A model generated the notes under the pieces. The model saw nothing but the letters and a program-made list of their open reading frames with translations. It made no database searches and was not told the DNA's origin. Shown here one piece after another: positions 52,655-53,004 of a stretch of DNA of 64,000 nucleotides; position 1 is the stretch's first letter; the number at the start of each line of letters is the position of its first letter. The stretch covers positions 44,216 through 108,215 of the forward strand of contig RDOA01000010.1 in assembly GCA_011364925.1 (NCBI GenBank), written 5' to 3'. The translations under genes were made by a program, and so were the position numbers. This stretch comes from Promethearchaeota archaeon (GTDB taxonomy: Archaea > Asgardarchaeota > Lokiarchaeia > Sigyniarchaeales > SOKP01).

Positions 52655-52778
52655 AGTTAAAATCTAAGATGTATCGTTAAGTTGTAATTTAAAATCTTTT
52701 AAAAGATATTAATTTTCCACCTTATATGTCTTAAAATTTTCATTCGAGTAAATAAATTGAACTTATAAAATATAAGAG

Positions 52779-52937
52779 GGCCCGATGCGGGAATTGAACC
52801 CGCCTTTCCCCAGTAATAAGGATATTCTTACACTTCTAGGGATTCACATAAGGGAATTTAGTTAGCAGCACATAACTTGTCCCCAATATTAGTTGGATCG
52901 ACTTTCTCTTTCCACTAACCACTATACGAACCGGGCC
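52779..52937 (-). tRNA. trnH: tRNA-His(GUG) with encoded G-1 and three BHB introns: 52889-52914 (22/23), 52849-52878 (32/33), 52806-52835 (45/46)
   Basis: Spliced sequence G GCCCGGT TC GTAT AGTGGTTA G|TAT T GGGGA C|T GTG AA TCCCT AG|AG GCGGG TTCAATT CCCGC ATCGGGC C folds as a cloverleaf with G-1:C73; each junction has a BHB. Confidence 0.93.
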
Positions 52938-52961: not shown

Positions 52962-52969
52962 TTATATAA
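52962..52969 (-). promoter_or_regulatory. TATA box of the tRNA-His gene
   Basis: TTATATAA 25-32 nt upstream of the tRNA 5' end. Confidence 0.6.
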
Positions 52970-53004
52970 TATAGCCTATTAAAAAAAAATTTTCTGTTTT
53001 GTTT

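Follow-up and report, generated by a model that had tools for sequence, protein, structure and literature searches.

Where is the tRNA-His gene of a marker-complete Asgard genome in which standard scans recognize none? The question arises from a window of 64,000 nucleotides (contig RDOA01000010.1, positions 44,216–108,215; coordinates below are those of the window unless another locus is named), which belongs to a Promethearchaeota (Loki-type Asgard) MAG of 3.9 Mb in 112 contigs, low in GC (~33%), 100% complete by markers and with an estimated contamination of 4.2%. On the minus strand, at 52779–52937, the original prediction placed a tRNA-His gene broken up by three introns of the bulge-helix-bulge (BHB) type, 26, 30 and 30 nt long, at the sites 22/23, 32/33 and 45/46. 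These boundaries proved exact, as judged by identity to an intronless orthologue and by covariation, and the locus is very probably a functional single-copy tRNA-His(GUG) gene with three BHB introns that are removed by splicing. Any statement below on transcription, on cleavage and ligation, or on an order of intron removal is deduced from sequence.

When the unspliced window is scanned, ARAGORN reports no tRNA and Infernal with the Rfam models reports nothing at the gathering threshold; with E values of up to 10 allowed, Rfam yields only a 17-nt fragment of the T-arm, under the tmRNA model. The expectation that standard scans may miss the gene thus holds for both programs. Another intact tRNA-His supplying the function had been named as part of what would count against the gene; none came up in the host genome with BLAST (precursor as query), ARAGORN, the Rfam tRNA model or a degenerate pattern of the 5′ exon, and within the assembled DNA of the 112-contig MAG the gene would be single-copy. 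An ARAGORN call of ‘tRNA-His(atg)’ with a 47-nt intron (G000:C86:7472-7607, G000 being the host genome) was rejected, as it has A73 and no G-1; it is probably a different multiply interrupted tRNA, tRNA-Glu. In the whole host genome, ARAGORN detects 23 tRNAs and the Rfam tRNA model 24 above the cut-off, and introns appear to conceal much of the tRNA set. Automated annotation would call this marker-complete genome tRNA-His-less and, with only 23 or 24 tRNAs detected, tRNA counts are misleading as quality criteria for Asgard MAGs.

Gene layout and the predicted spliced product

Two minus-strand ORFs leave a gap of 350 bp in which the locus sits. In minus-strand orientation, from 52937 (G-1) to 52779 (C73), it starts with GGCCCGG and ends with ATCGGGCC, and the three introns, which make up more than half of its 159 nt, divide it into four exons of 23, 10, 13 and 27 nt. 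Exon 1 (52915–52937) comprises G-1, the 5′ strand of the acceptor stem, the 5′ strand of the D-stem, the D-loop and G22; after G22 comes intron 1 (52889–52914, 26 nt, site 22/23). The 10 nt of exon 2 (52879–52888) run from U23 to C32 and contain the 3′ strand of the D-stem, U26, the 5′ strand of the anticodon stem and C32, which is followed by intron 2 (52849–52878, 30 nt, site 32/33). Exon 3 (52836–52848), from U33 to G45, carries U33, the anticodon GUG, A37 and A38, the 3′ strand of the anticodon stem, and A44 and G45, with intron 3 (52806–52835, 30 nt, site 45/46) inserted after G45. Exon 4 (52779–52805), from A46 to C73, supplies the end of the variable loop, the T-arm, the 3′ strand of the acceptor stem and the discriminator C73; CCA is not encoded. 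Since the exons are colinear on a single strand within 159 nt, the gene is neither a split nor a permuted tRNA gene.

An A/T-rich region upstream (52962–52992, minus strand), in which a TATA-like stretch accompanies a motif of the AAATTTTTTTA type that is conserved in the family, is a probable archaeal promoter. A motif of this type lies ~35–50 nt before G-1 in most of the 63 orthologous loci described below; its conserved form is AAATTTTTTTA(G/T)A, it falls at about 52977–52992 in the window, and it is a probable BRE/TATA element. Downstream of C73, nearly all orthologues have a pyrimidine- and T-rich trailer, here CUCUUAUAUUUUA with its T-tract (52766–52778, minus strand), which is a probable terminator.

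When the three inserts are removed in silico, the result is a 73-nt RNA that ARAGORN identifies as tRNA-His(GUG) and that RNAfold folds into a perfect cloverleaf with an eighth acceptor pair, G-1:C73. The features that identify a tRNA-His are all present: the GUG anticodon lies within a 7-nt loop with U33, and G-1 (the G at 52937) pairs with the discriminator C73 (the C at 52779), an arrangement retained in all 24 distinct spliced orthologues. A genome-encoded G-1 paired with C73 is the prokaryotic form of tRNA-His. The variable loop has 4 nt, AGAG, so that the Levitt pair at 15/48 would be G15/G48; in some orthologues, the loop is AGAC and the pair would be the usual G15/C48.

The most direct evidence for the exon boundaries comes from an intronless gene of a same-genus species, L027:1181-1253 (found also in L072), which is identical in every letter to the predicted product and scores 55.4 bits with the Rfam tRNA model RF00005, compared with a cut-off of 29. 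Exon 1, for instance, matches the first 23 nt of this gene without a mismatch. The comparison fixes the intron boundaries independently of any motif, to within one base: for intron 2, the boundary is unique, with no shift that keeps the same product, and introns 1 and 3 allow a shift of no more than one base, the central helix of the BHB being paired only in the register originally predicted.

Bulge-helix-bulge motifs and the fold of the precursor

The definition of a BHB motif used here is a central helix of 4 bp with one 3-nt bulge on either strand, each bulge being cut between its second and third bases. All three introns have this form, with the bulges lying exactly at the boundaries set by the comparison, and the helices and bulges that had been listed for them are all in place, each central helix being paired at 4 of 4 positions: GGUU/AACU with the bulges AG|U and AA|U in intron 1, GGGG/CCCU with AC|A and UA|U in intron 2, and CCCU/GGGG with AG|A and AA|A in intron 3. 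The inner helix (h′) has 3, 4 and 4 consecutive pairs in introns 1, 2 and 3, respectively; for intron 3, the 4 contiguous pairs extend, by reading, to 8 bp if a 1-nt bulge is allowed. Four base pairs make up the outer helix (h) of intron 1, compared with a single pair in introns 2 and 3. With both helices, intron 1 therefore belongs to the strict hBHBh′ form; the relaxed HBh′ form applies to introns 2 and 3, which have h′ and essentially no h.

Chance is a poor explanation of these pairings. When each intron was shuffled 200,000 times with the exons kept, the observed central helix and h′ were matched at frequencies of 9e-4 (intron 1), 2.4e-3 (intron 2) and 2.8e-4 (intron 3). The BHB pairings, moreover, covary among relatives. 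In the 14 orthologues with an intron at 22/23, 89% of the cells are paired, compared with 27–58% when the partners are slid, and 26 cells are double changes; for 32/33 (19 distinct orthologues), the figures are 90% against 41–59% with 39 double-change cells, and for 45/46 (30 distinct orthologues), 88% against 37–54% with 25 such cells. None of 500 shuffles reached the observed value at any of the three sites, with the proviso that these counts overstate independence because the sequences are kin. The h′ helices covary at all three introns, with many distinct pair types among the orthologues.

In silico folding gives the 159-nt precursor a strong structure, with an MFE of −53.6 kcal/mol and a z of −3.77. 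Its MFE fold consists of the acceptor stem, the T-arm and three hairpins, each formed by an intron and the adjoining exon strand, but the registers of introns 1 and 2 in this fold are shifted by one, that is, the exact BHB registers are not the optimum. Forcing a single BHB core costs 2–5 kcal/mol and forcing all three costs about 11, and the three cores fit into one nested fold of −42.8 kcal/mol. Because the BHB conformer is not the thermodynamic optimum, its recognition must rely on the enzyme.

In such a fold, splicing has to precede the formation of the mature D-stem and anticodon stem and, once either intron 2 or intron 3 is gone, the BHB of the other would compete with the 5-bp anticodon stem. 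It had been suggested that introns 2 and 3 each carry a mimic of the opposite strand of the anticodon stem. The pairing is indeed present, but it is no special device: the exon strand of the central helix always consists of the 4 nt at positions −6 to −3 from the 5′ cut, so that any intron at 32/33 pairs with 27–30 and any intron at 45/46 pairs with 40–43, and the competition follows from this geometry.

These elements combine into a plausible maturation pathway. The A/T-rich promoter of the gene itself would drive a precursor of about 160 nt or more in which only the acceptor stem and the T-arm have their mature form. The D-loop (18–20a) and the anticodon-stem strands 27–30 and 40–43 would each pair with a 4-nt intron segment, creating three coexisting BHB motifs in one nested fold. 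A two-subunit endonuclease, its catalytic subunit equipped with the crenarchaeal specificity loop, would cut each 3-nt bulge between its second and third bases, RtcB with archease would join the exons, and CCA would be added by the CCA-adding enzyme. The encoded G-1 would have to be spared by RNase P.

The orthologous locus and the history of the introns

Relatives of the gene were collected by BLAST, by an exact-pattern scan of the species' genomes and by a mismatch-tolerant scan of the family (135 genomes in 13 genera). The tRNA-His locus keeps its syntenic position throughout the family, among the same four neighbours (guanylate-kinase-like, unknown, DHH and DtxR-like). The 63 distinct orthologues contain between zero and four introns at about eight sites: 5 genes have none, 12 have one, 32 have two, 13 have three, and a single gene (L026/L069) has four. 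The most frequently occupied site is 45/46, with 34 introns, and three more listed at 48/49 probably belong here; where the variable loop differs, spliced alignment can misplace 45/46 introns to 48/49 or 49/50. Site 32/33 holds 29 introns and a 30th, in L033, that was misassigned to 28/29 in the alignment and is weak, with only 2 of 4 pairs in the central helix. These sites are followed by 58/59 (24 introns), 22/23 (16), 59/60 (7), 37/38 (4) and 20a/21 (1). In silico splicing brings every one of the 63 orthologues to 73 nt, giving 24 distinct products in which the changes in the acceptor and T-stems read as compensatory. Introns of the family tRNA-His genes are uniform in size: 81 of the 119 are exactly 30 nt long and 100 are of 29–31 nt. 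The 30-nt introns are built of 1 nt, a 23-nt hairpin, a 4-nt helix strand and 2 nt.

This comparative evidence bears on two readings in which the locus is no working gene. A tRNA-His pseudogene in decay, riddled with insertions while another gene decodes histidine, would explain why standard scans do not recognize the locus and why inserts account for over half of it; this is nevertheless very unlikely, given that the exons show 100% identity to an orthologue that is intact and intronless, the inserts fall exactly at the points where BHB motifs form and covary with their partners, several species keep the same three sites, and the scans of the marker-complete genome detected no other tRNA-His. 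Even less credible, to the point of being negligible, is an artefact of assembly or binning, i.e. a chimeric gene or a contaminant. The 4.2% contamination estimate gives this reading some footing, but the gene lies inside a 108-kb contig, the same flanking genes recur in dozens of independent assemblies, and homologues of the gene with three introns are found in at least six other species.

The intron sets change rapidly between close relatives. In a tree of the flanking proteins, the host genome falls in a four-species clade with four different intron sets, namely all three introns (the host), 45/46 only, 32/33 only, and 22/23 with 37/38. The four closest species in this tree are L001, L005, L028 and L010. 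The next clades out (L004/L036, then L007) have the same three sites as the host, and the introns of L004/L036 are visibly homologous to those of the host. Given the shared sites and the homologous introns of the outer clades, the three-intron state is probably ancestral in this subclade, and the reduced or altered sets of the sister species would be precise intron losses or replacements. The 32/33 intron of L028 is 63% identical to that of L008, which belongs to a more distant clade, compared with 33% identity to that of the host. Together with the four intron sets, this suggests that introns have been lost precisely and that alleles may have been replaced.

Intron 3 shows the opposite tendency. 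It is 97% identical to the intron of L005 and identical at 28 of 30 positions (93%) to the 45/46 intron of another genus (L048, L053), although the flanking proteins of these genera are only 49–67% identical and the upstream intergenic DNA is, by eye, unrelated. Intron 3 is old and slow-evolving, changing at an exon-like rate. There is no need to invoke its horizontal transfer between genera, an explanation that was weighed and set aside: the majority sequence type occurs family-wide and may simply evolve slowly.

Such conservation raises the question of whether the introns are kept for a role of their own, be it in the order of folding or modification, as a modification guide, or as a shield against integrating elements. 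Besides the exon-like conservation of intron 3 between genera, the sequestration of both anticodon-stem strands until splicing fits a role of this kind. However, close relatives manage with one or two introns at this locus or with none at all, no C/D-box motif was seen by reading in the three introns, and structural selection on a spliceable hairpin alone could slow the evolution of intron 3, so that a dedicated role is unlikely.

A tentative case, with the odds against it, can be made for the introns as members of one propagating class of 30-nt BHB mini-introns that could colonize any BHB-compatible site in tRNA and protein genes of Loki-type Asgard archaea and, at one and the same site, be swapped or replaced between species. 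The hints are the 30-nt length of 81 of the 119 introns, the four intron sets of the host clade, the 93% identity of intron 3 between genera, a shared sequence core and the build of an insert in a protein gene of the window. This insert (22438–22467, minus strand) combines in 30 nt a fully paired central helix (GTTC/GAAT, 4/4) with the bulges AT|A and TA|A and an h′ of 9 bp closed by a 5-nt loop, by reading the same build as that of the tRNA-His introns. The consensus hairpins of the 45/46 and 58/59 introns have a common AAGAA...TTCTT core and a purine-rich 5′ arm (0.75–0.81 purine); by reading, the insert at 22438 has the same core and purine-rich arm, which the 32/33 and 22/23 introns do not have. 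This similarity across sites is weak and the genome is AT-rich. A genome-wide geometric scan for 30-nt BHB modules returned 2016, compared with 1980 in a reversed-sequence control, which is no excess; with strict bulge letters and a 9/9 stem, the numbers drop to 5 and 1. Mini-introns are not countable this way in an AT-rich genome.

Splicing enzymes and known systems

The broad-specificity EndA that the introns had been predicted to need is encoded in the genome. Two paralogues of EndA are present, both of them containing the N- and C-terminal domains (PF02778, PF01974): the alpha subunit of 200 aa (L088:1453-2055, minus strand) and a second paralogue of 205 aa (L089:1198-1815, plus strand). 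The best match of the alpha subunit among solved structures is the catalytic subunit of the A. pernix enzyme (3p1z_B, E 3e-34). By alignment, its Y141, H149 and K180 correspond to the catalytic triad Y125, H133 and K164 of the A. pernix subunit, R173 and W197 are kept as well, and GISKPR aligns with DVEKPR of the A. pernix protein, K58 and R60 being the counterparts of K44 and R46 in the crenarchaeal specificity loop. In the 205-aa paralogue, the position of the catalytic His of M. jannaschii EndA is occupied by Ser, which fits a structural beta subunit. The subunit type, which had been proposed for checking, comes out as two paralogues with the triad in alpha alone and a predicted two-subunit (alpha-beta)2 endonuclease, the heterotetramer and the cleavage of relaxed motifs being assumed by analogy with the Asgard enzymes described by Kaneta et al. 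(PMC5829648), who assigned Asgard EndA to the (alpha-beta)2 type with the crenarchaeal loop. Mutagenesis of K44 in A. pernix EndA showed that this Lys is needed for cleavage at non-standard sites (PMC3241643). The RtcB and archease genes are divergently oriented neighbours (G000:C101:80571-82583).

As an essential single-copy tRNA requires three non-canonical cuts, two of them at relaxed motifs, a broad-specificity EndA is indispensable in this organism. The same dependence adds plausibility to the proposed splicing of comparable 30-nt inserts that lie in protein genes of the host. The support that the tRNA gene had been said to lend to the mRNA intron at 22438 is, to that extent, a reasonable inference, which falls short of a demonstration.

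Thermoproteales had been cited as the best-known case of triple-intron tRNAs. As described in PMC4090602 and a recent preprint (10.64898/2026.10.13.758758), through which the work of Sugahara et al. (2008) and Fujishima et al. [quoted passage not shown] They differ in belonging to another phylum, the present host being low in GC, and in that related introns recur across different tRNAs (transposition), whereas homology is demonstrated here only within the same site of the same gene. The best biochemical parallel for the enzyme is the A. pernix pre-tRNA-Thr with introns in the D-loop and the anticodon loop, for which Hirata et al. (2011; PMC3241643) showed experimentally that APE-EndA cleaves strict BHB as well as relaxed bulge-helix-loop motifs at non-standard positions. 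The catalytic subunit of that enzyme is the closest solved relative of the alpha subunit found here, with the loop Lys conserved; the tRNAs of that work, which concerned a hyperthermophile, had one intron or two.

The nearest precedent, however, is the interrupted tRNA genes of the Asgard archaea themselves. The incomplete predicted tRNA sets of Asgard genomes point to unidentified disrupted genes (Kaneta et al., PMC5829648). Valentin-Alvarado et al. (2024; PMC11291895) reported introns in 92–95% of the tRNA genes of Atabeyarchaeia and Freyarchaeia, more than half of these genes having several introns, many at non-canonical sites. For 90 Asgard genomes, Goswami et al. (2026 preprint, 10.64898/2026.10.13.758758) described up to five inserts per gene, D-arm introns that are missed by software, repeated gains and losses, and two EndA paralogues in most genomes. 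The present gene comes from the same phylum-level group and shares the multiple non-canonical BHB introns, the two EndA paralogues, the software-missed D-arm introns and the recurrent acquisition and loss of introns at a restricted number of sites. The two studies center on Jordiarchaeia and Atabeyarchaeia and do not name Loki-type lineages, to which the present host belongs, and the median intron length in the published Asgard census is 22–23 nt, compared with the 30 nt of most tRNA-His introns in this family. Heavily interrupted tRNA genes are thus already known from Asgard archaea, and the tRNA-His gene adds one more, its main value lying in annotation practice and in its context: zero to four introns at about eight sites among close relatives make up a natural series for the study of intron gain and precise loss in archaea.
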